DNA of 63,896 nt, the filler included, from Dugesia japonica (lineage: Eukaryota), in NCBI GenBank assembly GCA_001938525.1. It is 6 parts of 6 records of this genome, joined end to end, with 100 filler letters (N's around TTAATTAATTAA, not from the genome) between each part and the next. Parts side by side here need not be neighbours in the genome. Positions count along the whole stretch, not along the records: positions 33,835 to 42,371 come from MQRL01578304.1; 5 more parts are not named here. One strand, 5' to 3'. Shown in pieces: positions 8,925-48,456 of the stretch. The stretch's first letter is position 1. Each line of letters starts with the position of its first letter. The position numbers and the translations under genes are program-made. The notes beneath the pieces are model-generated. The model searched no databases. It was not told where the DNA came from and saw only the letters and a list, made by a program, of their open reading frames with translations.

Positions 8925-9043
8925 GTTTTCGTGTTTCAATTTTTGATTGAATTGAATAAATTTGTTATTATTTGTATCTTCTCTAATCTACTTCTTCGAT
9001 TTTATTTATGGAGGTGCCTACTTAAACTGTAATTTTTCTTTAG

Positions 9044-9224
9044 TGCCACGAATTGTTAGATTTGTTAGGTAGATTTCCCAAAGCAGTATATAGCCGACCT
9101 GTCAAGCCAAATGGGAAACCCTGCTTGGGTACAGTGGGACGACAACGACGACATAGCCTCGTTCAATTTTTTGGAGTCCGACACAAACCAGTGGTTAGAT
9201 CCTGATGTATTGGAAGACCTATAA
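9044..9224 (+). pseudogene. LTR cassette D, internally deleted
   Basis: TTTAG|TG CCA CGA ATT start joined directly to KQYIADLSSQMGNPAWVQW...LEDL*; about 200 bp missing relative to 23595-23956. Confidence 0.7.
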
Positions 9225-9500
9225 TTTGTAATGTTAATAGATGTTTTTGATAACTTTTGGTTACTTTTTGATCTATGTCTATAAGGGAAATTAATGAACC
9301 CAAAGTAAAGGTGTACGAGTGTGAACCCCCCGTAAAGGTTGAAGGTCAACCGCTCTGCACTGAATATCCAACTGAGGGGCATTGGATTTAAATTCTTGAA
9401 CGGGTCTCCCTGAGAGCTGTTTTTCCCCAGCCTTTGTTTTCATTACCAACTCAGGTGGGACCTCAACAGAATTATCATTATAATCATATAATATTCAGTA

Positions 9501-19961: not shown

Positions 19962-21386
19962 AGTAGATGGTTTAGAGCGCATGGGGCCACCCTATCCCAC
20001 GGAGAAAATTTTTACTGGCCCTGATTTTTAGCGTTTTATTGGTTGCACACACGTTTTTAGGGTTTTTGATTGACCTAAATTTTAAGGTCAAGTGGCCCCG
20101 ATTTTAAACGTTTCGATTGCTTAAAATTTTTAAGGTCAAGGTTAACTGGCCTCAATTTTTGATGAATGTTCAGATGAAGTCATCTTAGAGTTTTAAGGTC
20201 AAGGTAATATTTTTTTTGTTTAAATTAAGTGAAATTAATGATTTTTGTTTGTTTAAATTAATTAATTTTTACGATTGGTTTAAATGTACGGATTTTTTGA
20301 GGTTTTAATTTAAATTAAGTTATATAATGATTTTTATGGATTTTTCATAGAAAATCGATGGTAAAACTTATTTTGTTTAAAATTTAAAATTTTGAAGTAT
20401 AAATTTTAATCGCTCTGGTCAATATTAACATTAGAGGTTTCTCAGACAATATTAATAATAATATATTTATTTATTTAATTGTATCGCTATTAAATCTTTA
20501 TCAATCTTAATGGTTCTCCTAAGCCCTGGTTTTGAGGTATAGGTCACTAACTTCTTTGCTGAATTACATATTCTCAAGTTAATTCGTTTCTTCAAATTTT
20601 CAACTGATTTGCCATACAAGCTGTTTTTCATCAGCTTATAGTAATTTTTATTCAATTCATTCACACTTTCAGCCTTTAATTTGGTGTTTTCATCGATGTA
20701 TTGCTTGAAAATATGATCTTGTGGAAATTTAACTGTCTTATGAACATTTGTAACTTGCACACCTAATTGCAAGTACATCTGCAGTAATCCCCAGTGAACT
20801 ACGTAATTGAACTTTGAATAATGAGTCAACATTAATTTCTTGACCGTGCATCCTGGAGCATATTGATATTCGGCTGCAATGGGTAAGTCACTAAGATAAT
20901 CATGAAGTTCATTAGAAATCTCAATGTCAACTTCTAGTGTGTATCCATATTGTAACGACTCGAGATCTGCATATTTACATTTTTCTAAAACTTCTTCTAA
21001 TCCACAATATACTCATTCAAAATCTTTGTATGGTAACTTCTGGCTCAAAGCCCAACCCTACAGATTATTTGTATCGATGTATAACAACTCTCTGTTTTCA
21101 TCTGAAATAACATGATGTTTGTTGACAAAGGTGAGCCCACCTCTAATCACACCTTCGAAAAAAGTGTACATGTCGTTATCAGTTAAAAGCTCGATGGGTT
21201 CATTTAAAGTCATCAAAGCAGATGCCCAGCTCATACCTGGAATGCCAAAGAAATTTAAGGGTTCAAGACGGTTGTGAGCTAATGACTTGGCTCGGAATTG
21301 CTGCAAAAAGTCAGCTTGGAGAAAGACGTCCAACTTCATGTACACTATGACGTAGTGCACTATCCATCTACTACTATCCATCTACT
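19962..21386 (-). mobile_element. Internally deleted Polinton/Maverick
   Basis: Termini AGTAGATGG...CCATCTACT, flanks GAGCAA/GAGCGA (6-bp TSD, 1 mismatch), pPolB fragment inside. Confidence 0.85.
20467..21345 (-). pseudogene. Protein-primed family B DNA polymerase fragment
   Basis: GVIRGGLT, LLYIDTNNL*GWALSQKLPY, YTLEVDIE, YYKLMKNSLYGKSVEN motifs with stops. Confidence 0.9.
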
Positions 21387-21929
21387 GAGCGACGCCGGTC
21401 AAATTCGATGTTAGCACAGAAAATCTTGACGGTCATTCAACTCAAGGAGTTAAGAAATATATTTATTATGAGCAGTTTTTATTGTTGGTTTATTATTGTT
21501 TNNNNGTTTATTATTGTTTATTATTCAAATTTTAAATAACATTTGTTAATTTTTGATTTTTAATTAAAGTTCTGTAATGTATAAATTAATATTTAACTAC
21601 CACGAAATCTTTCAATATTTCGAATTTCAGGAATTTTGGTAAATTCCTCTTATATAAAGTCTATATTATAACATCTATATTATAACATATACATTATAAC
21701 GTCTAGAACACATTAAACAGTTTTTTTATAAATTTATTAAACTTTTTTACCTCTCACAGTTGTTACAAAAACAACTATTAGCCAAAACTCTTTTTGCCAA
21801 CAATATTGTTTATTATCATAACCTAACCTAGAGAAAATTAGAAAAAAAGAAATAAAAGAAAAATAACAAAAATGTCAACAAAATAAATTTTCCCGTTGGA
21901 TGGGGGCTGGGAATGTCTTTGTTACAATG

Positions 21930-22200
21930 CGTCACTATCTACTTACTCAAGTGGTCTTCTGTTTTGTAGCATTCAAGGTCAATTCTATCTCCTTTTTATA
22001 ATATCTCCTTTATTTAAGTGTCACATGTACCATATCTCACAATGTTCTAAACTACCTCTTGATTTTTTCATTTGTGTTATAGTGAAATGGACTCAAAAAC
22101 TTGAGGGAGATTCCATGTTCAGTTGCAAAATCTTTCATTGGTCTAGACTCAAATTCTCTTCCACAATCAACTCTAATTTCTCTCGGACACCAGAACTTCT
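21930..22200 (-). pseudogene. Gypsy-type integrase core fragment
   Basis: CPREIRVDCGREFES..MKDFATEHGISLKFLSPFH..TNEKIKR*FRTL. Confidence 0.75.
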
Positions 22201-22290
22201 GTAATTTATAAACTAACATTTAATTACCGCGAAATTTTTCAATATCTCAAATTTCAAGAATTTTGGTAAAATCCACTATTATAATGTTTA

Positions 22291-22410
22291 TATTATAACA
22301 TCTATATTATAACATCTATATTATAGCATCTATATTATAACATCTATATTATAACATCTATATTATAACATCTATATTATAACATCTATATTATAACATC
22401 TATATTATAA
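22291..22410. repeat. 14-bp minisatellite within a duplicated block (21590-21820 / 22220-22520)
   Basis: TATTATAACATCTA about 8-9 copies here and about 3 in the upstream duplicate. Confidence 0.85.
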
Positions 22411-23280
22411 CTCCTAAAACACAATAAACAGTTTTTTTTATTAATTTATTAAACTTTCTTACATCTCAAGTTGTTAGAAAAAACTCTATTAGCCAACAAT
22501 ATCCTCGTTTATTATCATCCCAGTTTAGTTTTCAATATTCAATATTATTTTTCCACTAAGAAATGACTTCTTCTATAGTGTTAAGTTGTGAACTATTTGA
22601 TGAATGTGAAGAAATCTGTGATTTTATTATAGGTAATTTGTGAAATGGCGCGAAGACTGTTGTAAAAACCACGCTTTAAAAAACCAAAATAAAATTTAGA
22701 AATAAATACGGAAAAAGAATTGGAATTATTTTCATTTTCTTTGAATAGTAAAATTCTTTCATTTGATTTTGCAGCATAATCAGAAAAATTATTTTCTTAT
22801 TCAGTTGCAACAAATTTATTTATTTTTAACAGCAAATATGTAAAAAATTTAATTAATTTCAAAATTGGTAAAATATTTGAACGTTTTTGAAAAAATTATT
22901 AAAAAAATAGAAAACATTGAAAAATCATAAGAAATAATAATTTTCAAATAGAAGGATTTACATACTTGTGCACCTTTATAACATACTACAGAGATTTATT
23001 AATAATAATTATTACCTTTTTAATACAAATTTCAAACAAAAATATGTACACATATATTTACAATTTATTTCACAACATAGAAATGTTATAAATATACACT
23101 TACTTTGAATTTCTTCTGAATATTTTTCATTTTCATCTTCGTCTTTAATTTTCGTTTTTAAATCTAAACAGTATTTTAATNNNNNNNNNNNNNNNNNNNN
23201 NNNNNNNNNNNNNNNNNNNNNNNNTTAATTAATTAANNNNNNNNNNNNNNNNNNNNNNNNNNNNNNNNNNNNNNNNNNNN

Positions 23281-24203
23281 CGCACGACCAAGAAAGAATT
23301 TGGAAATCGCAGGTAGAGTCGTTCGCCAAGATCATCCGGTCCAGCCATGACCGTGAAAAAAAACTGGTCAAAGGTATCCTGCATCTTAAGGAAAGATCCT
23401 ACTTCGAACCTTTCATGGTTGATAAGAGCACACAGACAAAATCTATATCGCGTGACTCAACTTTCTGTTTCTGGAAATAAAAAATCGAGTGTTGTAATCT
23501 TTGCNTTAGCGTGTATNACCTAAATTTTGATTAGACGAGTTCGATATCGATAATATTAATTATTTCTTCCCTATTATTAATCTTAATTATTTAGTGCCAC
23601 GAATTGTATTTCCAACAAGTTTACGGAGGTGTCACCGAATTATGCGTCGCTAGTTGTTAGAAGGACATTTAAAACGTAAGACCAAACGGGCCCTTCTAAG
23701 ACATCTCACCCAGCGGGATCGATTAATAAAAAAATTAGATTTATTGGTTAAAAAACAGAATGATTTGGCTGCACAAACCAAACAAATGTTACAACGAAAG
23801 GTAGATTTCTTAAAGCAATATATAGCAGACCTGTCAAGCCAATTGGGAAACCCTGTCTGGGTACAGTGGAATGACAGTGATGACATAGCTGCGTTTGACT
23901 TTTTGGAGACTGACACAAACCAGTGGTTAGATCCTGGTGTGTTGGAAGACCTATAATTTGTAATGTTAATAGATATTTTTTGATAACTTTTGGCTAATTT
24001 TTTATCAATGTCTATAAGGGCAAATAATGAACCCAAATTAAAGGTGTACGAGTGTGAACCTCCCGTAAAGGTTAAAGGTCAACCACTCTGTACTGAATAT
24101 CCTACTGAGGGGAGTTGGATTTAAATTCTTGAACGGATCTCCCCGAGGGCTGTTTTTTCACAGCCCCTTGTTTTCTTTTACCAACTCAGGTGTGGCCCCA
24201 ACA
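23281..24203 (+). mobile_element. Gene-bearing giant LTR, copy 2 (3' part; cassette C end, cassette D with nonsense codon, terminal region)
   Basis: ...MVDKSTQTK..., ATTTAG|TG CCA CGA ATT at 23595, terminus GGCCCCAACA. Confidence 0.8.
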
Positions 24204-26495: not shown

Positions 26496-27043
26496 ATGGA
26501 TGGATTGTATCTCGTCCAACAAACCAGAGATAAAGTTATCAAATGCACCACTTGCAAACAAGAAGCTCTATTACTGCAAGGAATAGAGAAATTACCAAGG
26601 AAAATATTCCATCACCCAAATTGCTCAAACCAATCAACGAGGAAGAAATACAAACAACAGCATGCAGAATCGAATGGAATATGTCACGTATCCGAATAGA
26701 AATGGCAGCTGAATTACAAATCAATAGACTGCATAATATCCTAAAGACAAGTCAGGAAAATATCAAGCAACTGATAAAACAAACAGTCGCTGAGAAAGGT
26801 ACTGAGTTAATCACGTCATACGAATTATACCAAAGATCATGTAAACTAGTAGAACCTCAAGTGAAATATGAGCAAGAATGGGCATTAATCGATAATAATT
26901 GTGTTATCTGCTTAGAAGGAATCATCGAGGTTGTATTCCTGCCATGCGGACATTTTAAGACCTGCTATAAGTGCGCTGTAAATCTAAATGAATGCCTTGT
27001 GTGCCGGAAGGTAATCGAACGTAGGGTATTGGGAATAAAATAA
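26496..27043 (+). pseudogene. IAP-like gene (degenerate BIR-like Zn motif + C-terminal C3HC4 RING), one frameshift near 26625; true start probably upstream
   Basis: AMDGLYL...DKVIKCTTC-x18-HHPNC then, in the shifted frame, CVICLEGIIEVVFLPCGHFKTCYKCAVNLNECLVCRKVI. Confidence 0.75.
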
Positions 27044-27156
27044 ACTTAAAATAAACTTTTAGTAAATAAACTTAAAATGTAAATAATGTATAATTATCTA
27101 TATATAACTGTCAAAATAATGGTATAACAAAATAACCACTTTCTCTAATTTTAGAA

Positions 27157-28328
27157 ATGAACAACGAAAACTTAATCACCCATCTCCGCAACGAGATTCA
27201 AATATTGCAAATTCAAACTCGAACCCTTACCACTATATCTGAAGTCCTAAAATGGAAACTGGAGTCCAAAATAGATGCACTGTCCAACTTTCAATTACAA
27301 AAATACAACAGTGANNNNNNNNNNNNNNNNNNNNNNNNNNNNNNNNNNNNNNNNNNNNNNNNNNNNNNNNNNNNNNNNNNNNNNNNNNNNNNNNNATAAA
27401 AAGCAACATCGATGCCAACAGAGCAAAAATCAACGCCATTAAACAGGCTCGGATTTGGAAAAGTAAATACGAGGAAGTTGAACCCAAAAGAAAAGAGGTA
27501 GAGAACCAATTATCCATCGAACAAAAAAATAGTCAAATCCTTAGGATGGAATTGTTCAACATGCAGTTTGAGAAAAGTCATCTCGCTACTGAAAATCAAC
27601 TTCTGATAAGTTTGGCAAATCGAGAGGGGGTGAAGGCTGGCATCGATAAACTATCTCTGGAATTCGAGAGCATAATTCAGGATTATCAACAAAAAAATGA
27701 GTTTTTACAACAATACATAGAAGCCTTGGAACAGGAGATTCTTGAACTAAGTACACTCTGCCGAGAAAAAGAAAATGAGATCGCAGAAAAACAACAACAC
27801 TTAATTGAAACATTCTCCGAAATTAAGAAACTTCTGAAATCTTATACAATTCGCCAACCTATCTCCCACCCAATAATGTTAGCAACTCCTCTCCAGCCAA
27901 GTGGTCTAACCACCTTCAATTCTCCCAAATCAACCTTAAACCATGCTGCTCCTGAATGGCAACCAACAATCTCAGGCCTATCAAGACAATCCACCCCATT
28001 AATATTTCAAGATCTCATAGTAGCTCCAGTTAAAACTAGGATACCCGAGTGGATAAATAAAATAATCGATTAGGCTTCCTACATAACTCCAACATCCTCC
28101 ACAATTCCCACCCAACATAGAAAACCGGTCCCATTGGTAATTCAAGAACCTCAAAGCATTTGTCTCAGTTCTGTAAAACTCAGTCAGATACCCAGTAAAA
28201 CCTCAGTAATCGACAACAATCAATTTAAAAGAAACCTATCCCAATCAATAGTAACCGAAATGCTACGGAAATATGGCTCTGATATACAACCGAACAACCA
28301 GAACAACCTAGTAGATGAAGTCGACTAG
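27157..28328 (+). pseudogene. Long coiled-coil protein with P/S/T-rich tail (gap inside; one in-frame TAG at 28071-28073)
   Basis: CTAAT..TTTTAG|AA ATG; ORFs 27546-28073 and 28134-28328 are in one frame; AATAAA at 28349. Confidence 0.6.
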
Positions 28329-28588: not shown

Positions 28589-31241
28589 TGTTGGGGTGAA
28601 ACACCCAGTAGAATGAGAAATCAAAGGGAGTCAATAAACATTCACCATCAAAACAAAAATAGTGTCACGGGGAGGAAGTAGAAAATAAAACAAGAAGAAT
28701 CGGGATCACATTGATAAACGAGAATAGAAAGACTCAAAGGATTAATGGTATTAATTATATAATCGGAAGAATTAATAAAATTAATAAAGAAAATGGCTAA
28801 CGAAAAAGAAAATAATTACAAAAAATAACAATTAATTTAAACGAAAAAAATTAATTAAAATTGAGACAAAATCCGTTTTAACCGAATAACTTCGCTCAAG
28901 GAAATCGGAAAGAATTCGGACAAAAAAATATGAAAAGAAAACAACAAGATGCATTGAAAATGCTAAAAGACGAAAACTTACCACCATTCCGAGGGTTGCT
29001 GCAGGGTCCTGAAGATCGGGCCAATAAGAATCCTAAAAATAAAAATAAAACAAAGACACAATTTTCAGGTGTCTCTCTAAAAATAGCTGCCAATTGTGGC
29101 ACCAAAACTTGAAGAAAATTGTAAAAATAGTTGTTTTTTCTGCTAAAAACAAGGGTCCTTTTATAGGATTTGACTTACACTCCGACTTCTTCTAGATTTG
29201 CTGATTATTTTTAGAGCAGCTTTTTTTTTGATTTCATTGGTTCCATCGTCAATTTTCTACAACTCACGAAAACAAATTTTACACCGATCCTCAACATACA
29301 ACTCAAAAGAATTTACTAATCAATTACCAGACTCGCATTAAGTTACAAGAAAATATTATCTGTCAAGAAGGATTCACTTTCAGGAGGAAACTTTTTAGTA
29401 ATTTCTAAATAATTGAATATCAATTAATCTTATTTCAAGGATAAGTGAAGTAATCAGCAGAACCTAGACAAGAAAAATTAGTTCTCCGAGGAAACCGTTC
29501 TTATCAGTTACTACCGATTGCCAGCACTGTTGCAGAGACCCTCTAACTAATATTGAAAAGTAAAATATTATTTTTATTTATGTTAAAAGTTGTAATATTA
29601 TCAAATATGGAATATTATGTAGCTTAATAAATGATGTCATGATAAAAAATCTTAATTTGTTATATTTTCTCCTTTAAGATTGTTGATCTATAATAGATAA
29701 ATGATTAATCATTTTGTATGCAAATTAATTAAATAGAAAATTCCTTGAAAAATCAGTCTTAATTAATTAATTGATTTTGGAGTTAAAGTAGCTAATAGAA
29801 ATGTCATGAATTTACCTTACTTAAAAATAAAATTTTATTTTGCCCAAAGTGAAAGAACAGAAAATATGCACTATGAATAAGTGCAATACTTTTTCGATAA
29901 TCTTATAACAACCACCGATTAGAAATTTCATGAAAAGAAGAAGTTTTCAATGTTATTTATTTCTTATGTTAAAATCCCATATTCATTAGTTAACTGATTA
30001 ACTGCATCAATTAGATAGGCTACTGTTAACTTGGAGTGGGAATAGAATGACGAATAAACATCTCTGACTGTTAAATGATATTATACAGTAGATTCCGTGT
30101 TAGTTTTCATTAAATTAAAGGAAAAAGAGTTAATATTTAAATATGTTAAAGCTTAGTTAAACTGAGATCGGAACACACATATATATATATTAAAAAAATA
30201 CATGAACTAACCGATTCATCCATCCTGTTTTCATATTAATAATTTTTATAACAACACAAAATATAATATCCAAAATTGTAACTCAAGATAAATAAAACTC
30301 CAACAATTTATTTAGCAAAATTTATTGAACGATATTTACCTATTTCGATATTTAGCCATGATCATAAATCCGCAGGTTGTGATGATAGATGGCGGCGAAC
30401 GTGCTTAACTCAGGTTCTGACCGACTGTGTTTTCTGACATGGAATGGCCACAAGTAGTGCAGTAGAATGAGAATCCCTATCGCATTTTCCAATTTTCTAA
30501 AAGACAGTAAGCCATCACCTAAAATTATGACTGAAAAGTGATACTATTAGACAATGCTTGTGTTAATGCTTACTCTAACCAGACATACACACTCGAGAAT
30601 AATGACACACAACCCGACACTATTGCAAATCAAATCAATCCGTTAGTAAGGGGGATAATCACCAAGCAACGGTGATGCGTAAAAGTTTAAAAGTAAAAAG
30701 ATATATAAAAATACAAATTTTATAATTATTATAATTAATGCGATTTATAACCTTTAATGGTTCAAATCATCATTATTACAACTAGCAGTAACGGCCTTAA
30801 TTTTTTTATATGCAATAAACACCATATAACCCACATTACTATTAGTAATTTATCTAGAGCAACGCCACTCCCCTGACATAATATTCTATTAAATAGCGCT
30901 TTAAGATTATGATATTTATTTACCACAATGGTGCCATTCCTAGTGTCAAAATTAATATTTTTGGTTGTTACACACTTCGGTAATTAATTTTTCTCTAAGA
31001 TATTATTATGGCCAGAATAATTCGGTTTCTGTTGATTAATGTCGTGGTATTACTTAGTAGAATTTTTGCCAGTTATGCCATCCCAATTGATTTTAGTACA
31101 ATCAAAATTAATATCCTTCCCTTAAGAGTTATCCTGTTAATACTGTATACCCCGCAGGGTTATCAAGAGTCAGTGTCTATTATTCAGCTTAGGGGATTAA
31201 GTTATCAATTTAAGATGGTGGTTAATGATTTCATCTTTAGC

Positions 31242-31424
31242 ATGCCAGACAAATTATATCATACCCTGCGTTGGATTGACAAGCAGCGACGCCTCAGTCG
31301 GACGAAGCAGCCAATAGCTCACCTACTGATCAAAGGGGAAATAGAGCATCCAGACGAAACGAACCTGAGTTGCTTTGTAGAAATGTTTCCCTTAATGACA
31401 GAAACCGGTTTAGACGCAGAATGA
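31242..31424 (+). CDS. LTR cassette A, 60 aa
   Basis: CTTTAG|C ATG; MPDKLYHTLRWIDKQR...GEIEHPDETNLSCFVEMFPL; AATAAA at 31453. Confidence 0.7.
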   Translation: MPDKLYHTLRWIDKQRRLSRTKQPIAHLLIKGEIEHPDETNLSCFVEMFPLMTETGLDAE

Positions 31425-31543
31425 TTCGCGTTGTTAGTAGTGTTGTCATGAAAATAAATTATATGCGCTATCTTGTCGACGTTTTATAATTGTTTATGGA
31501 AATTTTGGTTTTATTCTAATCATTCTCATACTTTAATTAGGAG

Positions 31544-31945
31544 ATGGAATCTATTTGGGAATGCATAGTGGATTGACGCACCCGTAGAATAATTTTCCGG
31601 CGGCACCACAATCCCTACAATCGAGATGCCGGGATCTTAGTAGATAGATCAAATCTACCCCCCATTGAAGCAGCCGTTGCTCGTATCCAGAGCTTTGGAG
31701 AACGACTTAACTATCGCCAGTGGAATGGTCCTGAGCGTAACCACGCTACTCCATTCCATTACCAATCTCCAGCTCCCCCACCAGTAGTTCAGGCCTTCAT
31801 AGCTAATCTGCTCTGGGGCGTTAGGGAACCTTCCGGGGTGGAGGATGCGGAAAATACAGCTCCCCTGATACTACAAATCCCGACTCTTGATGTTATCCTG
31901 ATTTCAAATTTTGTGTTTCTTTTAATAAATAAGTGTCTTAAGTAA
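31544..31945 (+). pseudogene. LTR cassette B (one in-frame TGA)
   Basis: CTAAT...TTAATTAG|GAG ATG; MESIWECIVD*RTRRIIFRRHHNPYNRDAGILVDRSN...AFIANLLW. Confidence 0.65.
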
Positions 31946-32090
31946 TATTAACATACTCTTTAATCCATTGAGAAAATTGTCTTTAATAGTGTTATTCCAT
32001 GTTTTATGTTTTAAGTAAAATTGAGTAGATATTAGTAAATCAGTCATCAAGTCGATGAAGGGAAATGATTTTTATGATATTTTCTTTTAG

Positions 32091-32449
32091 TGCATTCTTC
32101 GTTAAATCGCCCCCCAGCTCCAACCAAGAAAATCAGAGACACCAGTGAGGACCGCGAAATGACGTGGGACCTCTACTGACTGGCCAAACGACGTTGGGAG
32201 GCGGAAGTGGCTAATGCGAATAGTAAAGTCCTCCGTTATAAGAAAAAGTGTATTCTTTTTAAAAAGGAAGCGGAGGCCTCCCATTTACAGGAGCGCACTT
32301 GGAAAAAACAAGTGAAATCTTTCTCAGAGATTATCCGGTCCGGCCATGACCGAGAAAATAAACTGGTTAACGATATTTTGATTCTCTGGGAGAAAATCCC
32401 ACTCGAGCCGCTAATGGTCGACAAAAGTACTCAGACGAGCCGCTCTTAA
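32091..32449 (+). pseudogene. LTR cassette C (frameshift + TGA), ends MVDKSTQTSRS
   Basis: TTTTAG|TG CAT TCT TCG TTA AAT CGC; aligns to 8566-8924. Confidence 0.7.
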
Positions 32450-32568
32450 CTTGATATTTCATTATTGTTTGAATTAATAAAATATTCATTTGTATGAGAT
32501 TCTTCTGTTACTTGTTTTCTCGAGGCATAGATGAGGTATTCATTAATTTAATTGTACTTTTCCTTTAG

Positions 32569-32945
32569 TGTCTCGTATCGTGTTTCCGACTAGTTTGAGG
32601 AGGTGCCACCGTATTCTGCGCCGTCTATTATTAGAGCGACACTTAAAACGCAAATCAGAACAAGCTCTTCTTAAGCACCTTGACCAGAGAAATCAGCTCA
32701 TAAAAAAATTGGATTTGGTAGTCNNNNNNNNNNNNNNNNNNNNNNNNNNNNNNAAAGCCCTAGAGGCAGAGAACAGGAAGTTGCTGTTAAGAAAAATAGA
32801 CTTCCTAAAACAATACATCTCTGATCTTTCCCGGCAGATTGGGAACTCCGCTTGGATTCATTGGGGCGATGATGAAGATATCACCGCCTTCAATTTTACA
32901 GTAGATGACCCAGATCAATGTGCTAGTGTGCTAAACGATCTATAA
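32569..32945 (+). CDS. LTR cassette D, ~125-aa basic/coiled-coil protein; no genomic ATG (AG|TG)
   Basis: CTTTAG|TG TCT CGT ATC; RIVFPTSLRRCHRI...KIDFLKQYISDLS.Q.GN..W..W.D; AATAAA after the stop. Confidence 0.7.
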
Positions 32946-35336
32946 ATGTTATAATAATAAATGTTCCGAGGAGTATTGGTTTAATTTTTGTGTAATTAAG
33001 GGAAGTTTTTGAACCAAAATACAAAGGTTTATGGGTGTGCACCTCCCATTAAGAGTGAGGTCAACCACCATGAACTGAATACCTACCCTAGGGGCGGTAG
33101 GGTAAATTCTTGAAAGAGTTCCCCTGCGGGCTGTTTTTCCCCAGCCGCATTAATTTTTCATTCAGCTCAGGTGGGACACCAACACTACTATTAATTGGAT
33201 CGGAAGTTTTGATTGGGTTACTCGCGCTTCTGAGACTATCACACTACAGACATTCCCAGAATATCCAAAATATATATTTTGGTGGCAAATACCCACAGAG
33301 ATAAGCACAATTAAACCTACTACTAACATAATAACATCAACCCCCATAAAGTTAAATATAACGATTAACTCGAGTTTAAACGACAATCATAAGATAAAAA
33401 TTAATACAGAAAGTACATATTTAAAATACATTATAAGAAATCGAAATTCAGACCTAAATAAATATTATAAAAATTATCAATACTATAAGAATAAGATTCT
33501 ACAACTTTGGGGCACTACAAAAAATCCAGAACCTGAAAGCAAAATAATAAAAAGAATTTCCTTATAATTTTGGGAACAGGTGTAATACTCTTCCTCGTAG
33601 CGTTTATAGTATCAATTTATCAAATTCACAAACGCTATAATTGGAAGAGACAGCGTTATCGGAGTCGCAATACCCCAAACTCACCGGACTATGTTCAATG
33701 GACACAAGTATAAACACTTTCCAAAATGTATATTNNNNNNNNNNNNNNNNNNNNNNNNNNNNNNNNNNNNNNNNNNNNTTAATTAATTAANNNNNNNNNN
33801 NNNNNNNNNNNNNNNNNNNNNNNNNNNNNNNNNNTTAGTGAATCGGTTATTAAGTTCTTATTGGTGTAAATGTTTGAAATATTTATATAAAGTTTAATTT
33901 GATAAAAACAATTCAATGTTAAATTGTTATAAGCAGATTTTCATATATTTTCTGGAAATATATATAAATTGAGAAAATTTGGATATTAATAAAATAGACA
34001 AACGAAAATTAAATATTATTTTTTTTTAAAAATAGCTTTTGCTGTTTTTTATGAAATATCTCCATCTTATGTCATTTGCGGATTTACAAGTAAATTTTCA
34101 GAAGTTTCGAAAGTGTTTGTCTGTTGAACCAATAGAAATCAGTTTATTTCACAATTATATTATCAGTCGAAATATTTTGTAATTACATTAGTATTCATCT
34201 TTTGGAAAACAAGTTAGCTATTTAAATTTTTATCTATATATTTATATTTATTATATTAAATTTAAGTACTTCGCTTACTTTTTAAGTCGCTATTTATTTT
34301 TCTTAATAATTTTTATTTTATATTATTTATTATAATTTATTAATTTTCAAGTTTTGCATTTATCGTTCAACTATTGGAAAAATAAAAATAAATTGCATAA
34401 CTAAAAAAATTTCTAAATTTTATTTTTTTAATATTATTTAATTATCTTTTTAAAAGAAATGTTTAAAAAATAAAAATTATTTTTAAAATTTCTAAAAGTA
34501 TATATAAATTTTGATTTTCAGAAATTATAGAAATTCTTTTTAAGAAAATTTAATATTAATAAGATTTAGTTATTAATAATAAACAATAAATAACCGAAAA
34601 TTAAAACGTAAAAACTTTTTTCCAAAATTAAATAAATGAATTAAATGACATATAACAAAAAAATCAGAAAAAAATTTTTTCTGTTATTGTAATACATTGG
34701 GAATATAAATCAAAATTTTATTTCTTTGATATATTCAATTAACAGGCAATTATCTCAGCATTATTTAAATAAAGCGTCTAATATGAAATTTGGCTGTACT
34801 TGAAATTCTGAGCAGAATTTTTAATAAATTATCAATTATCTTTTGGTATCAAAAGGAAAAATTAATAAAATTCTAAAATTTACATTTTATAAAATTTATT
34901 GGATTTCAATTGTCTTTAATTTTAAAAAATAATTAAATTAACTAAATGATTTNNNNNNNNNNNNNNNNNNNNNNNNNNNNNNNNNNNNNNNNNNNNNNNN
35001 NNNNNNNNNNNNNNNNNNNNNNNNNNNNNNNNNNNNNNNNNNNNNNNNNNNNNNNNNNNNNNNNNNNNNNNNNNNNNNNNNNNNNNNNNNNNNNNNNNNN
35101 NNNNNNNNNNNNNNNNNNNNNNNNNNNNNNNNNNNNNNNNNNNNNNNNNNNNNNNNNNNNNNNNNNNNNNNNNNNNNNNNNNNNNNNNNNNNNNNNNNNN
35201 NNNNNNNNNNNNNNNNNNNNNNNNNNNNNNNNNNNATCATTCTGTTATTTATATTCACCATATTTAAAAATGCAATTCGTGTGTAATTTATTAGAATACA
35301 ATTTTATTGAATTATTTTTAGTTCTGGATACTAATT

Positions 35337-35605
35337 TGGCGACCACATTAAATACAAGTGAACTGAATCGATTAATTTCGCAACCGAAGATGTTCTCCGC
35401 AAATATGGATGTAGAAGATTTCATTGTGGAAATAAGAAATTAATTTGATTTAATCCAAATTAATCCAAAACAAAGAAATATCTTAATTCGAGATTTTATG
35501 GACGAATAATCTAGAATGTAATTAGAGAAGCTCAATGATTCCGATAATTATGAAGAAAATCTACGAAAATTATACAGTAAATCCGGTAACCTTGTAGAAG
35601 ACTAG
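35337..35605 (+). mobile_element. Gypsy-like PBS + gag start, degenerate
   Basis: TGGCGACC then QPKMFSANMDVEDFIVEIRN*F. Confidence 0.5.
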
Positions 35606-36520
35606 CAAAATGCAGTAGGTAGATTTAAGTGCACTGGCTCAAAGTGAGTTACTATTTGAGTTACGTTTGATTGGTTGATGAAGATCAAAGTGATTTACGT
35701 TTGATTTATCAGTTGCGGGGAGAGCAAGTTTGGTTTTAATTGGCCTGGAAATTTAAAACAAAGATTTTTTCAGTGCGGTCACATCAACCGTATACGTTAC
35801 TAGTATTCGTGTAAATTTTTGATTTGACCCGTATGTATGTTGTGATTGATGCGACCCATATGAACATTACGAATGAATGATCTAATATATTTCTCTAATC
35901 ATTCTGTTATTTATTCATTTTAAATAAAAAATATAATTAATTTACAAAGTCGTTCGACATCTTGAGTATATTTTCTTTCAAGATGTTATATGGAAGTCTG
36001 TTTTTTGCACGGGAAATAGAATTGAAGTTTTAAAATAAAATCTTCCATTATTAGATCAATGTTTATACATGTTTTGGCTAAAACACAATCCCAATAATCT
36101 TCAAAATTCATATCTCTGGTTTCTTCTACGAAATCTAGAAATTTGTCGTTGACTATCTGGTTTGCTGATTCTAAAATAAAAATTTAAACAAATATACATT
36201 AAATAAATTTCTTACGTTTAAAGCTTACTATAACTTCTTCATTAAACTCTTTTTCTTATTCACTATCTTCATTTAGTTTTAGATGATCACAAGTCACTTC
36301 CATCTTTTGTTATTCATTAATTGTATTTTCTTCTTTATTCTTCTTCTTTATTATTTCTTTATTCATGTCTTCAATCAAATTTGCAATATCTTGATTTCGA
36401 AAAATAAGTGTAGTTGGGACACCAGTCTCAAAGCAATCTTCAAAGTTAGACATTGTTTAAAGGAGTAAATTTAATTTGAAAAGCATGTTCTATCCAATCA
36501 TATCAAATAAAATAAATAAT

Positions 36521-36621
36521 AACCAATCATAAAACCCATAACCAATCATATCTTTTAAAAGTGGTAACGACCAATAGAAATTAACAAATAATGAGAAAGT
36601 ATGTATCACATCAGTATATAA
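36521..36621 (+). promoter_or_regulatory. CCAAT-box cluster + TATA box
   Basis: ACCAATC at ~36522 and 36541, ACCAATAG at ~36570, TATATAA at 36615. Confidence 0.4.
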
Positions 36622-36955
36622 GCAGTGGTTTTCATAAAATTAATCACATGTACGATTCAAAAAATGCAAGAAACATCAAAGAATTCAAAAGATATGACAA
36701 TATAATTAACCCTATTTGGAAGATTAAAACTGTTCAAGATTTTTATTAATAAATGTTTTAAACCCTATTTTATTTATTTGTTTTCATTTAGTTATATACT
36801 ACTTTGTTAATTTTTATTAATGATATAAATAAAAACACAATTCAATTAACAAGATTTATTAAATATCACATTATTTGTTGTTTTCATGCATTTTTATGGC
36901 ACTAGTTTTGTATTTTTTCGAATGAAGGGTTCAAATCTGACATTATTTTATAAAC

Positions 36956-37370
36956 TTAATTTTGATAATATAAACTCTTGACATCAAGTATTACAAATTT
37001 TCCACTAGCAAATACATTAACACATGTAGGATTGTACTTAGTAAGTCTCAATGCTGGAAAAAATCGGGTTCATACATACACTTGGTTATTCTTGCTAATA
37101 TATACAAATTAACTGATAGTTTCAAAGTGACTACAACAGTTAACGATTGTAACTGAATGTTTTTAATGTCATTCTGTAAATGCTTCATTTCTATTGGTTT
37201 CTTGCATTCCATGATTCTACAATTTCCTTACTTAAAGAAAATAATCGTATACTTTCCACTTTATCAACAATTTGTGATGGTTTACCTATAGGAAAATTCA
37301 TTTTACAGGTTATTTCTCAAGTGATTTGTCCTTTATAATTAATATTAGCAATCACTAGTATTATTGATAT
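36956..37370 (-). pseudogene. Compact TATA-binding-protein-like gene in a Polinton relic
   Basis: VIANINYKG...YTIIFFK*GNCRIMECK...IQLQSLTVVVTLKLSVNLYILA...MYEPDF/FPALRLTKYNPTCVNVFASGKFVILDVK, matching both TBP repeats; 2 frameshifts and 2 stops. Confidence 0.75.
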
Positions 37371-37433
37371 CTTTCAAATATGTGGTTTGATAAAAATAAT
37401 TCGTTTAAACAATATAAATAATAAATTTTAAAA

Positions 37434-37700
37434 ATGAATAAATTAAGAAATGATGCTGCATATCAAATTGTTGGTCCCAGTGGTAGTGGAAAAACACTAT
37501 TTGTGTGCAAATTATTGATATCCAATTGATTTTAATCAAGGTTCATTAAGATTAACTGGTATAGAGGTGCAGATGAAGAGCATGGATTGACTCCATCTGA
37601 GTTTTCTATTATAAAAATGACAATTATAAATTGATTTGATGATAATTGTAGCAAGAGATGGAAACTAGGTGAGCGCAATTGTTGTTGATGACCTATATTA
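37434..37700 (+). pseudogene. Polinton/adintovirus-type packaging ATPase, N-terminal part
   Basis: YQIVGPSGSGKTLFVCKLL (Walker A), I.W.R, then IVVDDLY (Walker B) after a frameshift; truncated by a hAT element. Confidence 0.8.
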
Positions 37701-39560
37701 GGGCGGCTAACTTTGGTTTACATAAAATCTACTTATTCGTTCAAATGCGTCACGATTGATTTAGGACCTTTTGTTTAGTTCATCGAACACTGCAGTTCAG
37801 AAAATAGACAATAAACATACTGTCAAATCCAAGGGTTTTTGAACAACATGCGTAATTATTAACCATATTTATTAATATAAGTCCGCAGACTACAGAAGAT
37901 AAAACAGATAACATAAATGAGAAGCCTGTGTTTGCATCTTTCTGACCAAGGAATCATAATTAAGGGTATAATTGGGAAAAGATAATAACAAAGAATCATC
38001 AATATGAGTATCGGTGAGAAAAGAACGTTGTTTGATCTTTGTTAACTTTAAATACAAAAATGCTGATTCATAAAGGTATGTTGATCCAAAACAAAAATAA
38101 ATATATTCGCTACATTTGGTGATATTAGGATATTTCTCGCGGTTAACGTATTTCCAAAAATCCTCTTCAAATTTTCTGGCTTGTTAGATTAAACCAGTTT
38201 GTTAAATTATAATTCCACTTTTAAATGCCTTTTGCTCCATATGAAATATGTTTGAAAGTTTTTGTCTAATGCGTTTCACACTTAAATCTGTTGTAAAAAG
38301 AAAATATATATATTTCACAATTTCTTTAATTTCTTCAAAATCTTGAAATCGTTTCTCAAAATCTTCATTTACTTTTTGGATTTCTGCGAGGTATTTGTGA
38401 ATATTATAATTAATATTTTTATGTTTTTGTAAATGGTCTGACATATTTGGAAAATGATTCAGATTATTTTATTGCAGATGTTCTATTAGTAAAATAAATT
38501 TTATTTTATATGCATCTGTGCAAGTGATTATTTTAATTGCTGTTTAATTTTTACCTTGTAATTCTAACTTTAAATAACTTAACATTGAAGTCAAATCGCT
38601 AATAAAAGCTAAGTCACTAAGTCAAGTTTCATCATATAAATTTTCATATTTTCTATCTTGCTCGTGGACATAATCTATTATTTCAGGCAATAAATCACGA
38701 AAACGTTACAGAAATTTACCTCTACTTAGCCATCTTACATCACTATGTAGTAATAATTTAGGTTGGCACACATCGAACTGCATTTGGAAGAGACACCGTT
38801 TAAGTGAACTTCCTCTAATTGAATAAACAATTTTAAATGCTATGTCCATAACTTATTTTGTGTTAAAACTCTTGCTGGTGAATTATGCAATGGTAACTCT
38901 AAGAAACTGGGAAGTCGTCTTCATTTTGACATAGGGCTATATATTCATTTATGCGACCTATCATTGCAGCGGCGCCAACCGTTGTTATTGAAATTAATTT
39001 AAAAAGTGGTACTTTTAAATCATTGAGTAAGTTTTTAAAAGCTTTGAATATATTTACGCTAACTTTGAATGATGCAGTAGTTACTGCTAGTGACTTCAAC
39101 ATTGACTTTTGAAAACATTTCTTTGATTTGTTAATTGCGTTTTAAGATCATTAACTATATGTTTTTTTAATTCGGTATTTTGTGAATAATCTGTTTGATA
39201 CTTGTTATATAAAGTTAAAAATGTAGCTTCATATTACCCTTTTTAGCAATGGCTATCAAGCTAAGACATTAACAACAACATTTATTATTTACCACTGTAA
39301 AAAAAGTAATAAAATGCCGATTCTTTATTGAAATGATAATTTTTCGATTTTTTTGGTTTACTACTCATGTTCATGGGTATACTAAAATGCAAAATAAATA
39401 CTTTTGACAATTTTTTTTCCTTACTTATCTGAAATGAATTAAATATTGAAAATAAATAATGAATATTGAATTAAATACTTTCCAAGAAAATTAAAAACTA
39501 ATAAACTGCTGTCATTAACTTCGTTAACGGCTTCAGCTTAGACGCCTGTGCCACAATTTA
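37700..39560 (-). mobile_element. Degenerate hAT transposon (GTF2IRD2/SPIN-like transposase)
   Basis: LISITTVGAAAMIG, HSDVRWLSRGKFL, FEKRFQDF, FGSTYLYESAF. Confidence 0.85.
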
Positions 39561-39887
39561 ATTTAAAGCATAAAAAAAGGTACTTACAATTTAACCAGAA
39601 AAAGAATTGAAATTTAACGTAGTCACCGTTGATAGATAATATTGATTAATAATAACAATATTGTTAATACTCCAGAAAAAAGGCTACACTATGACACTAC
39701 CAGATATTGACGTATTCATATTTATCTCAACACACCACTGGCTGTCTTTCTATGAGTCATAACTACATGCATACTGTTGACGGATTGCGAGTTACTAGCG
39801 AATAATATTGTGCAATATTATTTTTAATAAATATAAGACTTAGGGATTTTACCTATTTCACTCGTAACTTGGAAATCTCTCTATTAT

Positions 39888-40306
39888 TTATTTATTTTTA
39901 TTTGTAAATAATCTTTTTACTAAATCTTTTACATTTTTAAAATATTCTTGAATCTCTTTATTTCCACGCCTGTAGTTAATCAAATTTTGAAAGTCTTTGA
40001 TAACATCTTTCTCTTTCTCAAATGCCATGCGTAAATGAGCCTGAAAACGTTCAACTTTTTCCAACGTGTTTGTATATTCTTTCAACAAGTCTTCATCTAA
40101 CAAACAAGAGACTAATCTCTACTGTTTTTGGCTTCAAAATAAAATTTAAAACGCTTGATGATTTTCTCAAAATCATCATTTCTGCAGACCACATTAGGCA
40201 ATAGCCTCTCTGTAATAGAATTGGTTTTTACCGCTACCACCATGTTAGGTATATATTCAATTGGTAATTCATTTTGCAAATCACTACTAATATTTTGAGA
40301 CATCAT
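39888..40306 (-). mobile_element. Retrotransposon gag-like fragment
   Basis: LPNVVCRNDDFEKIIKRFKFYF...LINYRRGNKEIQEYF. Confidence 0.45.
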
Positions 40307-41289
40307 TTATTTTACTTCTACAAACCATGTTTCATTATATAAATAATATCGAAATACAAGCATTTCAATATTAATTATTTATATAACTCAATTTCTATTG
40401 GGTGAAATTATTAATTAATAATTATTTCCTCATAGGGTAATTTTCTATCTTTTGAACAAAGCATATTTTTACAAAAACCCGTATACAAAGTATGTTCAGA
40501 ATTTTATTTTTAATCGAATGCTATCATTATCACTATTATTTGTCCAACAAACAAAGTGAAATATGTTCAGTTTTTAATTCTAAGACGAATGGTATCGAAA
40601 CCATACAATCAATATTGATTGAGAAATCCTTGAAATAAAGTTCAAGTGTTCCGATGCACTACTACTCTTGTAGCGAGGAACCAAACCGGTTTTTAGAAAA
40701 GTAAATTTATATTCTTATACAGAATTTAGTTCCGAGTTAAGCCTTATGAAATGTGAAATTATACCATAAGAATTCGTCGAAAAATTAAATTCCGAAAATT
40801 TAAATTTTCATACTTTCCGACCAAAAATTCGACAAACCAAAATAGAAAACGAAAAAATTAATTTTTATAGACCAATAAAAACGCTCAAATTTTCAGAACA
40901 CTTGAAATTTTTCATGTATTGTTATTAGCCAATCCAAATGCTCAACTTTTGAGAACACTTTTTTCAGAACACTTGATGGATGGGGGTGTTCTTATGCCCT
41001 ACTATCTATCTACTGGAAATAAAACTCACTTAAAATCGAAATAAATAATAAATAATAATTGATTGTAAAATAATGCATTATTACTTATTAAATATTTGAA
41101 TTTTAAAATTCAAATTAAATAATAATAACAATAAATTGAAACTTTTAAATTTCTCAAGTATTATTAATTTGAATATATTTATTTAATTGAATCTTGTTGA
41201 AGATGTTTGTATTATTAACATGGTGTTGCACAAATTACACGTATACCCTCTCTTATAATACAACAGAATAAATACTTTAATATGTTTAT

Positions 41290-42071
41290 TGTAGAATTGC
41301 AATCTCGGGATCCCTTATAATTTTCCCCCGTTCTAAAATCCCAGGGATATGTAAAAATTAACCATGAAATGAAAAGAAAGTAATAAAAAAAAGTCATAAA
41401 GAGTTTATATGCTTTAAAGTACCCCAACTAAAAACGACAATTATTTGCAAAAATATGTAAAAATTTATTTTGGAAGATCATTCATTTGAAAGAAAGATTG
41501 CAAAACACGATGTAGTAGCTTGCTGTGTATGCTGGAAAGATTTCATTTGTTAAAGATTTGTATAAAATGTCACTGGTTTATTTCAATATTGAAGATTCGT
41601 TAAAAATGGATGAATATAAGGATAAAATTGTTTCAGATTTAATTTGTGTGTTAAGTCCAATTAAATCAACGGTTTGTGCAATTTATAGACTTGATGCTTA
41701 TTTAATAACTGCAGATATTGCATTAGAATTTATAATGAAAAATATGGAACAACAGAATTTGAACATCAGTCGCAAAACTATTGCAGCTTTAATTCTTCAA
41801 ATTATGTGAATGTTTTTGTTCACATGTTTTGTATTATGTATTTGTTTATGTTTTATAGCCCAATTATTGCACTTCAATATATATATAAATAATATATATA
41901 ATTTATTTTTAAATAACCTACACCAAGATATATTAATTTTGTTGATTAAAAACCAATAACCCACAATTTATGTCACGATTTTGCATTGATAAAAAAACAC
42001 TTAAAAAATCGCGGGAATTCCCCGAGATGAAAATTTAAATCCTGAATTTTTCGGGATTTTTGCATATCCTA
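41290..42071 (+). mobile_element. Deleted hAT-like transposon
   Basis: TGCAATCTCGGGATCCC left and CGGGATTTTTGCATATCCTA right ends; LSPIKSTVCAIYRLDAYLITADIALEF transposase remnant. Confidence 0.55.
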
Positions 42072-42310
42072 GTTTACTGTTAAATGTGTAAATTTACTGC
42101 TAAGTATCAAAATAATGTTATGGTAATCCTTTGCTAAAAATATTTTAAGAATGTTAGAAAATTGAATCTTGATAATTTGATTCTTATTTTTCTTTAAAAA
42201 ATTTTAATAATTAATAAAATTTTTGTTTCTGGAAAAAACCATACTACAATATGCGTTGCTTATACAACTGTTGATGCTGCTGATAATCATGACTATGATT
42301 ATTATTGTTA

Positions 42311-42371
<61 letters not shown>

Positions 42372-43915: not shown

Positions 43916-46900
43916 TTTTCGTACTTCGTATTTCTCATGTTTTTTATGTATTGTAATTTGGTGGAATTGAAACCAATACAAGAAATCAAAACAGCTAAGG
44001 AAATGTTTGCAGAGATCTATGTGTACATATATGTTCTCACATTTACTATTGAAGAAATTCGACAAGTTAGATGTTTTCATTTTTCTAAATTATTATGGAT
44101 ATTGTTTAATATAAATAACATTACTTTAAATATTTTTTAATTTTCATAAGTAGACTTTTTGAAATTTCTAACACAAATAAGATAGGAACGTTGAAAATTA
44201 TTTTCTTTCGTCTTTATTAAATAGTATATATTGTATAGTGTATCAGAAATTACAAATTCTACACTGGATTTTCGTTTCTAAGTTAAATGACAATGTTTTA
44301 AATGATTTCTAAAATATCTTTTGGAAATATAATTCATTTAATTATTCTTTCTAATATTATCAAATGTTATAATTATAAATATACTAATGGCTAGGTTGAT
44401 TTTGTTGTTTATGAAGGAATATGTGATTATTAAAATAAATATAACTCTAAATATGTGTAACTGTAAAAGGAAATATTTTTTTTGATATTTTGTAATTAAT
44501 TCTAACTAGAAAGGTGAAATAATTTTGGTAGAATAATTTTCTCCCAATATCTAATGAAAATTCATTTCTTCCAATTTCTGTATATCACATTATATAAATT
44601 AATTTATTGTGATATATCCTTTTATAATTGCAATCATTGAGAGAATAATTGTTGGACATAACCATTGATCGTTTTTCAGATTTCATTAAAATAAAATCTT
44701 CAATTAAAATTTGTTTTTTTGGTTTTTGATAACATTTCTATATGAAGACATATATCCTATTAAAGCATGTTTTACATGACTTTTAAATATTTTTAATTTT
44801 ATTTTTATACGCTTATTGGTTTACCATATAAATTTTTCAATTTTACAAAAATTTTTGGATTGTCCGACTTGGTCAAATTAGTATTTTTTTAATATAATTT
44901 TCTATTTTTTATATATTATTGATATAGTTGATGTGAATTTTCTCTTCATGTTTTTATTTTTACTGCTTTTCTTCTACTTTCTGATTTTTAAATTTCTTAT
45001 TAATTTATATATTCGATGTGTTTTGCTTTAATTTTTGTATCGGCATATTTATATATTTGTTCCGATTTTATTTGTACATCTGTTATTTGTGCAATAATAA
45101 TTTTTTTATTTAATAATATTTACTGTTAAATAATCTTATTTGTACATATCTTTATGTATATTTTCATGTGATTACAAAATTTCGATGTCGATTTTATTTT
45201 TTCATTTAAATTTTCTCAATCGAGGTAAATAAATATATGTATATATAAAGTTGCTTTTTTCTTATAAAAATGAAACTGAACCACGTTATACACAAGCAGC
45301 AAATGCTAAGTTTATTTTTAGCTTATTTTATCTTATTTTAATTAAATTCAAATTTTTTCATATTTTTTGTTTTGTTATTAGATACTTGATCAAGAGCTAA
45401 CTAGTATAAAATATAAATTCCAAGAATACTTTTCTCGAATCTGGAACAAATTGGACATAGTTATTATCGCTTTTTTTATTTCAAGTACCGTTACGAGATT
45501 TACAATTCCTAGTGAAAATTTCATGTTATGTCGCTGTTTATTTGCAATGACATTGAGCATGTTCTTTCTCAGATCAATGCAGTTTTATTTTGTAAACAAA
45601 TCTATTGGACCTAAAGTTATCATGATTCGAGATATGGTTGAGTTATAATTTTTCTCAAAAATTTATTTAGATTATTCTTTTTTATAGCTTCGAGATATTT
45701 TGTTTTTTTTAAGCATATTTGTGATTTTTATTTTGGCATATGGAACTTTATCTCATTCTTTGAGATTTCCCAATAGCAAATTGGACTTAGCACTTTTTAA
45801 GGATATTGCCTACATTCCGTATTTTCAGACATATGGAGAATTAATGCTGGACCAATTTGAAAGTATTTATCTTAAATAAATTTTTTATATTTAAATAATT
45901 TCTGATATTGAATTTGTTATTGAATTTGTTATTGAATTTGTTATTGAATTTGTTATTGAATTTTTTATTGAATTGAATTTGTAAAGGACCGTTTTGAGTT
46001 TGTAAATTTTATCTCAAATTCTGTTGTAAGTAATAATGACGACTTTATGGTGTCCTTTGATATTTCTAGCTTATTCACTATTGTTCCTTTGCTGGAAACA
46101 ATAGATCTTTGTTGTGATATATAGGAAGTAATGTGAGTGATCAATCTAAAATGAATATATCTGCTTTCGTTAATTTTTCACTTTTCCAACGACTAATGTT
46201 TCGTTTCTTTTAACAATGAATTATATTAACAGATTGATGGAGTAGCTATGGGTTCTCTTTTAGCTCCGAAATTAGCGTGGATTTTCTTGAATAAGCATGA
46301 AGAACGAATGAACTTACTTACCAAAAATTTGTTGACGATGTTTTTCTTATTTTTGTTAATCCTGAACATGTTCTGCTTTCCCAGAGTTTTATGAATTCGT
46401 TATATCCTAATATTCGGTTTACTGTAGAGGAAGAAAGAAATGGTATTTTGCCTTTTTTGGATCAACGCATTATGAGACTGAAATCTACAGAAAGAAAAGT
46501 GATACTGGCTTGTATGTTACCCCAAATAATTTTTGTAATCCTGCTTATAAAAAGAACATGATAAAGTATTTAATGCTTTGTTCATGGTCATTGTTCTCAA
46601 TTTATTCCAAATCCATTAAAAGTATTGAACATTTATTTAAGTTACTGCAAGCAAATGGATATAGTAAACAATTTTTAAGTTCATTGACTTCGTTGACAAT
46701 TGACAAAATATTGGTTGGTAATAATATTGGTTTTGATAAAAAGATTGAAACTGTGTTGAATAATCCTAAACCCTATAGCACTTTATCTAATTGGATTGGG
46801 CCATTTGTTTTATCGATCGCTGAAGGTTTTAAAAAGTTAAAGAATTCGATTTTGAAAGCTGCTAAGGATTTTCTTTTATTGAAAATTGTTTCTAATATTG

Positions 46901-48456
46901 TTAAACGCTTTGTTAATAAATCCCATACACCAATTGGTTTGTGTTCTAACCTTGTTCATCAAATTATATGTAATGTATGTGAGGCCACATACATCAAAGA
47001 GACTGCCCGTCATCTCTGTACAAGGGTTCAAGAGCATAATAGTTTTGGTGGTGGTAGTAATATTGCTGAGCATAAAAATAAAAATATAAGTAATTGTAAT
47101 GCGAATGCCGAAATTTTAAAAGTTTGTCTAAGTAATTTTAAAATGATTGGGAGAGAGTTTTGTGGGAGGGGTTAATGATTAATTTAGGATTAATTAAGCA
47201 TTAATTAATTACGCATTAATTTATAGACAGCTCTTTCGACTAAATTGATTAAATTTTTTTAGATACAAAAATATTTTTTAATTTTTAAAATTTTAATATA
47301 TTTTCATGTTTTTATAAGTTCTGTATTTTATTTTTCAAAATAATTTTCAATTTTATTATTTCATAGGCTTTGAAAATTTTTTAATACACTTTAAAATTAA
47401 AAAATTTTAAATATTTTCGAAAAACGTTCTTTTTTTAGTCTCCTTGATTTTTATAGGTTTAAAATAGGAATTTTAATAAAATATTATTATAGAAGATATT
47501 TTTTTAGAAAATAAATAAATTTTTTAATTGAAAAATTGTTTAAATTTATAAAATTAGGAATTATAGCAAATCTTATATTCAGTATAATTGCTTGAATCTT
47601 TGTTTAAATAATACAGACTGAGTAAACTCATCTCTTCTATTTTTCTGATGAAAAATTCGTCAAAATAGATAATAATAAAATTTTATTTTAAATGGCGTTA
47701 CTTATTTTATGTTAAACATTTNNNNNNNNNNNNNNNNNNNNNNNNNNNNNNNNNNNNNNNNNNNNNNNNNNNNNNNNNNNNNNNNNNNNNNNNNNNNNNN
47801 NNNNNNNNNNNNNNNNNNNNNNNNNNNNNNNNNNNNNNNNNNNNNNNNNNNNNNNNNNNNNNNNNNNNNNATTATTATTAATATTATTATTANNNNNNNN
47901 NNNNNNNNNNNNNNNNNNNNNNNNNNNNNNNNNNNNNNNNNNNNNNNNNNNNNNNNNNNNNNNNNNNNNNNNNNNNNNNNNNNNNNNNNNNNNNNNNNNN
48001 NNNNNNNNNNNNNNNNNNNNNNNNNNNNNNNNNNNNNNNNNNNNNNNNNNNNNNNNNNNNNNNNGCAGTATTTCTGTTATTGACAAATGTGTTGTTGATT
48101 AATTTGTTAATTGCAATGTTTGGGTGAGTGAAAAGTTTTCAGTGTTTATGTACTATGATGAATTTTACTAAAATAATATTACCTTATTANNNNNNNNNNN
48201 NNNNNNNNNNNNNNNNNNNNNNNNNNNNNNNNNNNNNNNNNNNNNNNNNNNNNNNNNNNNNNNNNNNNNNNNNNNNNNNNNNNNNNNNNNNNNNNNNNNN
48301 NNNNNNNNNNNNNNNNNNNNNNNNNNNNNNNNNNNNNNNNNNNNNNNNNNNNNNNNNNNNNNNNNNNNNNNNNNNNNNNNNNNNNNNNNNNNNNNNNNNN
48401 NNNNNNNNNNNNNNNNNNNNNNNNNNNNNNNNNNNNNNNNNNNNNNNNNNNNNNNN

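Follow-up and report, generated by a model that had tools for sequence, protein, structure and literature searches.

Does a short frame resembling the TATA-binding protein (TBP), lying beside a packaging ATPase of Polinton (Maverick) type in DNA of Dugesia japonica (assembly GCA_001938525.1), belong to the mobile element, and what would a TBP do there? The frame lies in a stretch of 63,896 nucleotides, filler included (the window: six parts of six records joined end to end), within the part taken from MQRL01578304.1 (positions 33,835–42,371). At this locus the window contains a decayed, dead fragment of a Maverick/Polinton element that occurs in high copy number. The relic leads to a Maverick lineage that has scarcely been described, one that encodes a minimal TBP of its own and carries, as the matching candidate for a late promoter, the 7-base word YATAAAC. 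Judged from sequence, the compact TBP probably, though by no means securely, reads this word and brings host TFIIB and RNA polymerase II (Pol II) to the genes for packaging, capsid and integrase.

The TBP relic and the compact family

The intact protein P0001 was matched over residues 1–151 across three frames of the relic (tblastn, E = 3e-60; 37355–37260, 37260–37057 and 37066–36905, 78–85% identity), and its reading is interrupted by frameshifts near 37260 and near 37063 and by in-frame stops at positions 37319, 37230 and 36958; the first codon is not an ATG. The original prediction of one frame of about 135 codons was corrected to three frames and 151 codons (of which about 133 precede the 36958 stop); both TBP half-repeat motifs that it quoted are present in the sequence. 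The expected match of the translation to the TBP family was obtained from two consecutive, collinear pieces (Pfam TBP profile positions 2–39, E = 0.011, and 38–67, E = 0.005), both scoring below the curated cut-off. The compact-TBP family profile detected three relic pieces in the six-frame translation of the window (E = 5e-4, 3e-20 and 7e-16).

Using the 70-residue middle piece as the query, three intact proteins were found among 25 candidates, and the relic pieces are 69–85% identical to intact compact proteins. A search with P0001 gave 771 representatives at E ≤ 0.001 and 118 at E ≤ 1e-10; the best 150 matches were mostly compact with a common signature, nine being canonical two-lobe TBPs. 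A 53-sequence alignment recovered 177 relatives among 432 metagenome stretches, the best 80 of which were kept as the locus set. One giant-virus-type contig was also recovered, the 182-aa TBP of which is of canonical type and falls outside the compact group. In a quick tree 40 chosen compact rows were split from ten canonical rows by one branch (Shimodaira–Hasegawa-like approximate likelihood-ratio test, SH-aLRT, 99); the suggested phylogeny against host TBP and TRF2 was thus realized in part, with one eukaryote-type nuclear TBP and with no TRF2/TBPL1 or host TBP among the rows. Among the sequences searched and the tree rows, the nearest relatives of the relic are compact element proteins and not a cellular TBP or TRF. 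The compact family is under purifying selection, with a median ratio of nonsynonymous to synonymous substitution (dN/dS) of 0.255 (128 pairs; 0.109 for the ATPase, 13 pairs).

Open reading frame (ORF) families recovered over 81 loci comprised ATPase (27), integrase (17), PLA2-like (16), putative minor capsid (14; a label that we assume from gene order), putative major capsid (11), pPolB (8) and protease (7). The ATPases match Pox_A32 and Adeno_IVa2. The putative major capsid family, F9, gave an Atlas score of 0.97 to clusters with PF21738 in 15–65% of members, a Capsid_N match at E = 0.007 and no PDB sequence match. A core gene is present in 38 of the 80 loci; most others are short, and 11 of the 37 loci of at least 3 kb hold none. 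Where both genes occur (27 loci), the ATPase lies downstream of the TBP gene in tandem in 24, upstream in one and divergently in two (at 385 and 1685 bp). Because the ORF families recur across loci and the ATPase is in tandem in 24 of 27, TBP is, on gene content, regular cargo of a Maverick lineage and the head-to-head order is local to one subfamily; the divergent pair did not prove to be a conserved feature.

No TFIIB family was found among 86 scanned element proteins (a selection from 614 called ORFs, plus P0001 and one ORF of locus L082); C2H2 and KilA-N proteins are encoded by TBP-carrying elements. Other cargo includes a leucine-rich repeat protein (L029:1918–3327), a dual-specificity phosphatase (L012:4008–4316), a ubiquitin-conjugating enzyme (L013:225–719) and a RING finger protein (L045:1710–2168). 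The Maverick elements L082, L083, L084, L085 and L086 (L084 and L085 being QGON01 contigs) lie within bacterial genome bins and are probably eukaryote-derived contamination.

The region 35900–38200 was queried with the contigs of three DNA runs carrying the same organism label, of which 2537, 2645 and 2741 aligned. Summed contig depth, which is not copy number, was about 10,000–34,000 over the TBP gene and about 5,000 over the spacer, rose to as much as 211,000 at the ATPase start and stayed below 100 in the flanking bins, which reveals a large repeat family. One contig with a second organism label covers 37245–37597 and joins both gene starts. RNA reads from related copies were few and in both directions, with almost none close to the window copy.

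The compact protein and the word YATAAAC

In the model of the compact protein the two-lobed TBP fold extends across residues 1–150 of 151; the model of the closest intact protein to the relic is 20–27% identical to cellular TBPs. The saddle fold is common to cellular and archaeal TBP (PF00352; PDB entries 7o4i_O, 5fur_A and 1mp9_B), as are the L5.1 phenylalanines, kept in both lobes (F41 and F116, each with a frequency of 1.00 among 266 members), and the C-lobe stirrup, in which both glutamates that contact TFIIB, C.L3.2 and C.L3.4, are conserved (E96 at 0.93 and E98 at 0.99 of the same members); the contact roles follow the accessible part of PMC7221094. Unlike cellular TBP, the compact protein is encoded by a mobile element, is about 150 instead of about 180 aa long and has an N-lobe stirrup shorter by ten residues with no conserved phenylalanine, so that three of the four intercalating phenylalanines are kept (mapped by motif, not by superposition). 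On the DNA face the family has fixed N, R, M, S/T and N at positions that are hydrophobic in cellular TBP, a pattern that a changed specificity would predict. The long N-lobe helix H2, bearing the basic regulatory patch, is mostly deleted and not present in the model, its spacer being 20–21 residues in 137 of the 266 members compared with 33 in canonical TBP.

Among 282 de-duplicated 100-nt upstream segments, ATAAAC occurred in 141 (19.9 expected). YATAAAC was found ahead of 131 of 221 non-TBP genes and one of 61 TBP genes, with 0/221 on the antisense strand; it stands ahead of the core genes and not ahead of the TBP gene. The enriched word is defined by C at position 7, starts with C at 32% of sites and peaks 30–49 nt ahead of the ATG. 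A TATA word plus initiator precedes 13 of 61 TBP genes and, among the other genes, 15 of 221. As a control, five loci were picked by their ATPase alone: in L082, which has a TBP, the word precedes three of five other recognised genes, and in the four loci without a TBP match it was found in 0/14 segments. Of 24 ATPase word sites, 17 fall outside family coding sequence. The ATPase C-terminus (L013:3286–3921 and others in the alignment) has a conserved YKQ/HKR peptide that the YATAAAC of the next gene could encode, and the promoter word may thus shape the end of the ATPase protein.

In the proposed mechanism the TBP gene would be an early gene whose TATA/initiator promoter, of ordinary type, is read by host factors. 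The compact TBP would then recognise YATAAAC with a concave face that has been remodelled, is more polar and retains three phenylalanines, and would contact TFIIB through the two conserved glutamates of its C lobe; in this way host TFIIB and Pol II would be brought in and the packaging, capsid and integrase genes switched on. Loss of H2 would release the protein from contacts with TFIIA, Mot1/BTAF1, TAF1 and Brf. The head-to-head layout, as the gene order of one subfamily, would stand outside this mechanism. The full picture, a widespread Maverick lineage with a true early-to-late cascade and a one-protein orthogonal switch that combines a 150-residue TBP, a private YATAAAC promoter, host TFIIB/Pol II and escape from TFIIA/Mot1/TAF control, is about evenly balanced between true and false.

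Several observations weigh against this mechanism. TATA plus initiator was present upstream of only the 13 TBP genes mentioned above, and a TATA word in 28 of the 61 segments; H2 is not deleted in every member, the spacer being 28–32 residues in 40 of 266; and many element ORFs lack a Pfam match and could be cofactors. Since 158 of the 300 word sites fall within coding sequence, protein conservation could inflate the counts. The exact YATAAAC was not found in the 78-bp spacer of the window. The control consists of four contigs, all incomplete, of which three have similar ATPases and a GC content of 51–56%, and a missing TBP on a partial contig does not prove absence; with a control so small, related and partial, TBP and word may be merely co-inherited.

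TATAAAC is, moreover, one base off the canonical TATA box, so that host TBP may read it. It is accordingly conceivable, if unlikely, that host TBP or some other factor reads the word as a promoter, with the mini-TBP acting only as a modulator (helper, repressor or autoregulator); the C2H2 and KilA-N proteins of the element could bind DNA, and the association of TBP with the word depends on the four control loci. This reading is opposed by the defining C at position 7 and the frequent initial C, both of which canonical TATA boxes disfavour, by the absence of the word from all 14 control segments and by the non-canonical DNA-face residues that the family has fixed.

Retained TFIIB glutamates together with a lost Mot1/TFIIA surface would also suit a dominant-negative protein that soaks up TFIIB or occupies host promoters, dampening or redirecting host transcription, and a role of viral TBPs in regulating their own genes, and possibly those of the host, has been suggested (accessible part of PMC7221094). 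Such antagonism as the main function, which the original prediction had suggested along with redirection, is rather improbable: it found no direct support, it leaves unexplained a strand-specific word before core genes and not before the TBP gene, a pattern pointing to the late genes of the element itself, and an integrating element would presumably need host Pol II for its own genes.

The resemblance of the word to AATAAA raises the further, very improbable case of a polyadenylation-like 3'-end signal of the preceding gene, TBP then being cargo with no link to the word. Of 187 word sites, 43 are followed by a stop codon within 10 nt, and 29 of 130 gene ends without a following family gene carry the word. 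At gene ends, however, it occurs in 3 of 35 when a TBP gene comes next and in 85 of 147 when another family gene does, and its spacing to the next ATG is tighter than that to the stop; both features argue against a 3'-end signal.

That the relic is a processed host TBP/TRF pseudogene beside a Polinton ATPase relic by chance is scarcely credible: it has no introns and its reading frame is broken, but its similarity to intact compact proteins and their distance from cellular TBPs, the position of the family inside Polintons, the tree and the thousands of host contigs aligning to the stretch all oppose it, and the divergent, element-encoded TBP first proposed is borne out by homologs, neighbourhood and tree.

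Relation to known systems

The proposed recruitment by a private TBP resembles in operation, and not in family membership, that of the beta- and gammaherpesvirus late-gene TBP mimics. As far as the accessible part of PMC12529657 shows, KSHV ORF24 likewise is a viral protein with a TBP fold whose DNA face is rich in polar residues, and it uses host Pol II, late genes carrying a non-canonical minimal TATA-like word and early genes ordinary promoters. ORF24 differs in being multidomain, in binding Pol II directly and in needing five more viral activators, and a section heading of the same source describes its model as incompatible with TFIIB binding. The Polinton protein, by contrast, is a TBP fold alone with the TFIIB residues kept; extra N- or C-terminal domains of ORF24/BcRF1/UL87 type are not present, the fold filling the modelled chain. 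The TBP–TFIIB pairs of Nucleocytoviricota (PMC7221094, in part) also include a divergent viral TBP without the eukaryotic N-lobe regulatory signature, but these are mostly diverged at the TFIIB glutamates and accompanied by an encoded TFIIB, whereas the Polinton family keeps the glutamates and no TFIIB was found among the scanned element proteins.

With Mavericks, Polintons and adintoviruses the relatives of the relic share pPolB, rve integrase, packaging ATPase, protease, PLA2 and capsid-like genes, and TBP is not among the eight vertebrate Maverick core genes (accessible parts of PMC8502044 and PMC8097293). TBP is tied to Polinton-like elements in figure legends of Starrett et al. (PMC8502044; preprint 10.1101/697771, in part), and the link was found nowhere else in the literature searched, subscription journals and Repbase reports lying outside the search. 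The readable text part of the Starrett supplement contains no TBP or TATA; its slide supplements may bear on novelty. Neither term was found in 10.64898/2026.06.19.733378, PMC10748475, PMC8097293, PMC10120064, 10.64898/2026.10.13.758929 or PMC11131425, the TBP of PMC10675990 belongs to mirusvirus-like elements, and TATAAAC was not found in the Polinton papers among the matches listed. A coral study reports expression clusters by gene class and, in its accessible part, no mechanism (PMC11131425).

If true, a TBP of their own paired with a private promoter word would provide Polintons with a virus-type early/late programme, bearing on whether they are viruses or transposons, and one small protein and one 7-base word would suffice to put the timing of their genes to the test. 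The protein would also be a natural minimal TBP separating TFIIB binding from TFIIA, Mot1 and TAF control, and the pair a candidate orthogonal promoter system.

Features of the window

Table 1. Coordinates of element features in the window.
Feature	Position	Strand	Basis or remark
Compact two-lobed TBP homolog, pseudogene, 151-codon	36902..37355	-	Profile and tblastn homology
Divergent spacer, 78 bp	37356..37433	.	TATA-like word at 37413 (+)
Polinton A32/FtsK-type packaging ATPase pseudogene, 5' third, truncated	37434..37700	+	Profile, tblastn
High-copy element DNA downstream of TBP gene, gene not assigned	36440..36901	.	
pPolB fragment, separate	20470..21408	-	51% identity over 326 aa to pPolB of TBP-carrying L013

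The first codons of the TBP and ATPase relics are separated by the full spacer (Table 1) and not by about 65 bp as first estimated. The ATPase relic runs from 37434, with Walker A at 37473 and stop codons at 37527, 37533 and 37632; it was detected by the ATPase family profile (E = 2e-12) and is 50% identical over 82 aa to the ATPase of a relative locus. The proposed Walker A/B ATPase of Polinton type holds in identity and in both motifs; the Walker B-type motif (37678–37698) lies in a different frame from Walker A and the gene is truncated, no ATPase homology being found in the window past about 37700 by tblastn or the family profile. Just to its right a hAT-like transposase remnant (37890–39141) gave a weak hAT dimerisation match (E = 0.047).

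The DNA downstream of the TBP relic contains CCAAT words at 36523, 36542 and 36571 and a TATA word at 36615. Family profiles found no other element gene families beside the relic, and neither major capsid nor adenovirus-type cysteine protease in the window; the integrase profile gave only a weak piece (E = 0.013, 22192–22040), with none beside the relic. The relic is not bracketed by any of the 25 longest inverted repeats shown for the window. The pPolB fragment, 15.5 kb from the relic and the only other strong match in the window to the element gene families, belongs by sequence to the same kind of element and is not shown to be part of the same insertion. It lies next to a 14-bp tandem array (22266–22450) and near a 139-bp duplication (21567–21705 and 22194–22332); the interval 20470–22450 is possibly another decayed Polinton piece.

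Elsewhere the window is AT-rich DNA of eukaryote type, in which ion-channel-like exons and numerous transposon remnants occur. A decayed multi-ORF repeat is present in three copies (about 6600–9500, 23200–24200 and 31000–33300), with no convincing Pfam match and no match to the Polinton gene families; upstream of the third copy lie a RING (C3HC4) ORF (26534–27043) and coiled-coil-like ORFs (27136–28073). An arginyl-tRNA synthetase coding sequence (12570–14185) has very long open frames and is apparently intron-poor. Exons of a cation channel gene, which we take to be TRP-like, occupy 45382–48127 (Ion_trans, E = 0.002), and the remnant at 59251–59986 is presumably a hAT-like transposase. Two related retroelement-like remnants, 46301–47175 and 3489–4678, are inverted to each other and are assumed to be Penelope-like.
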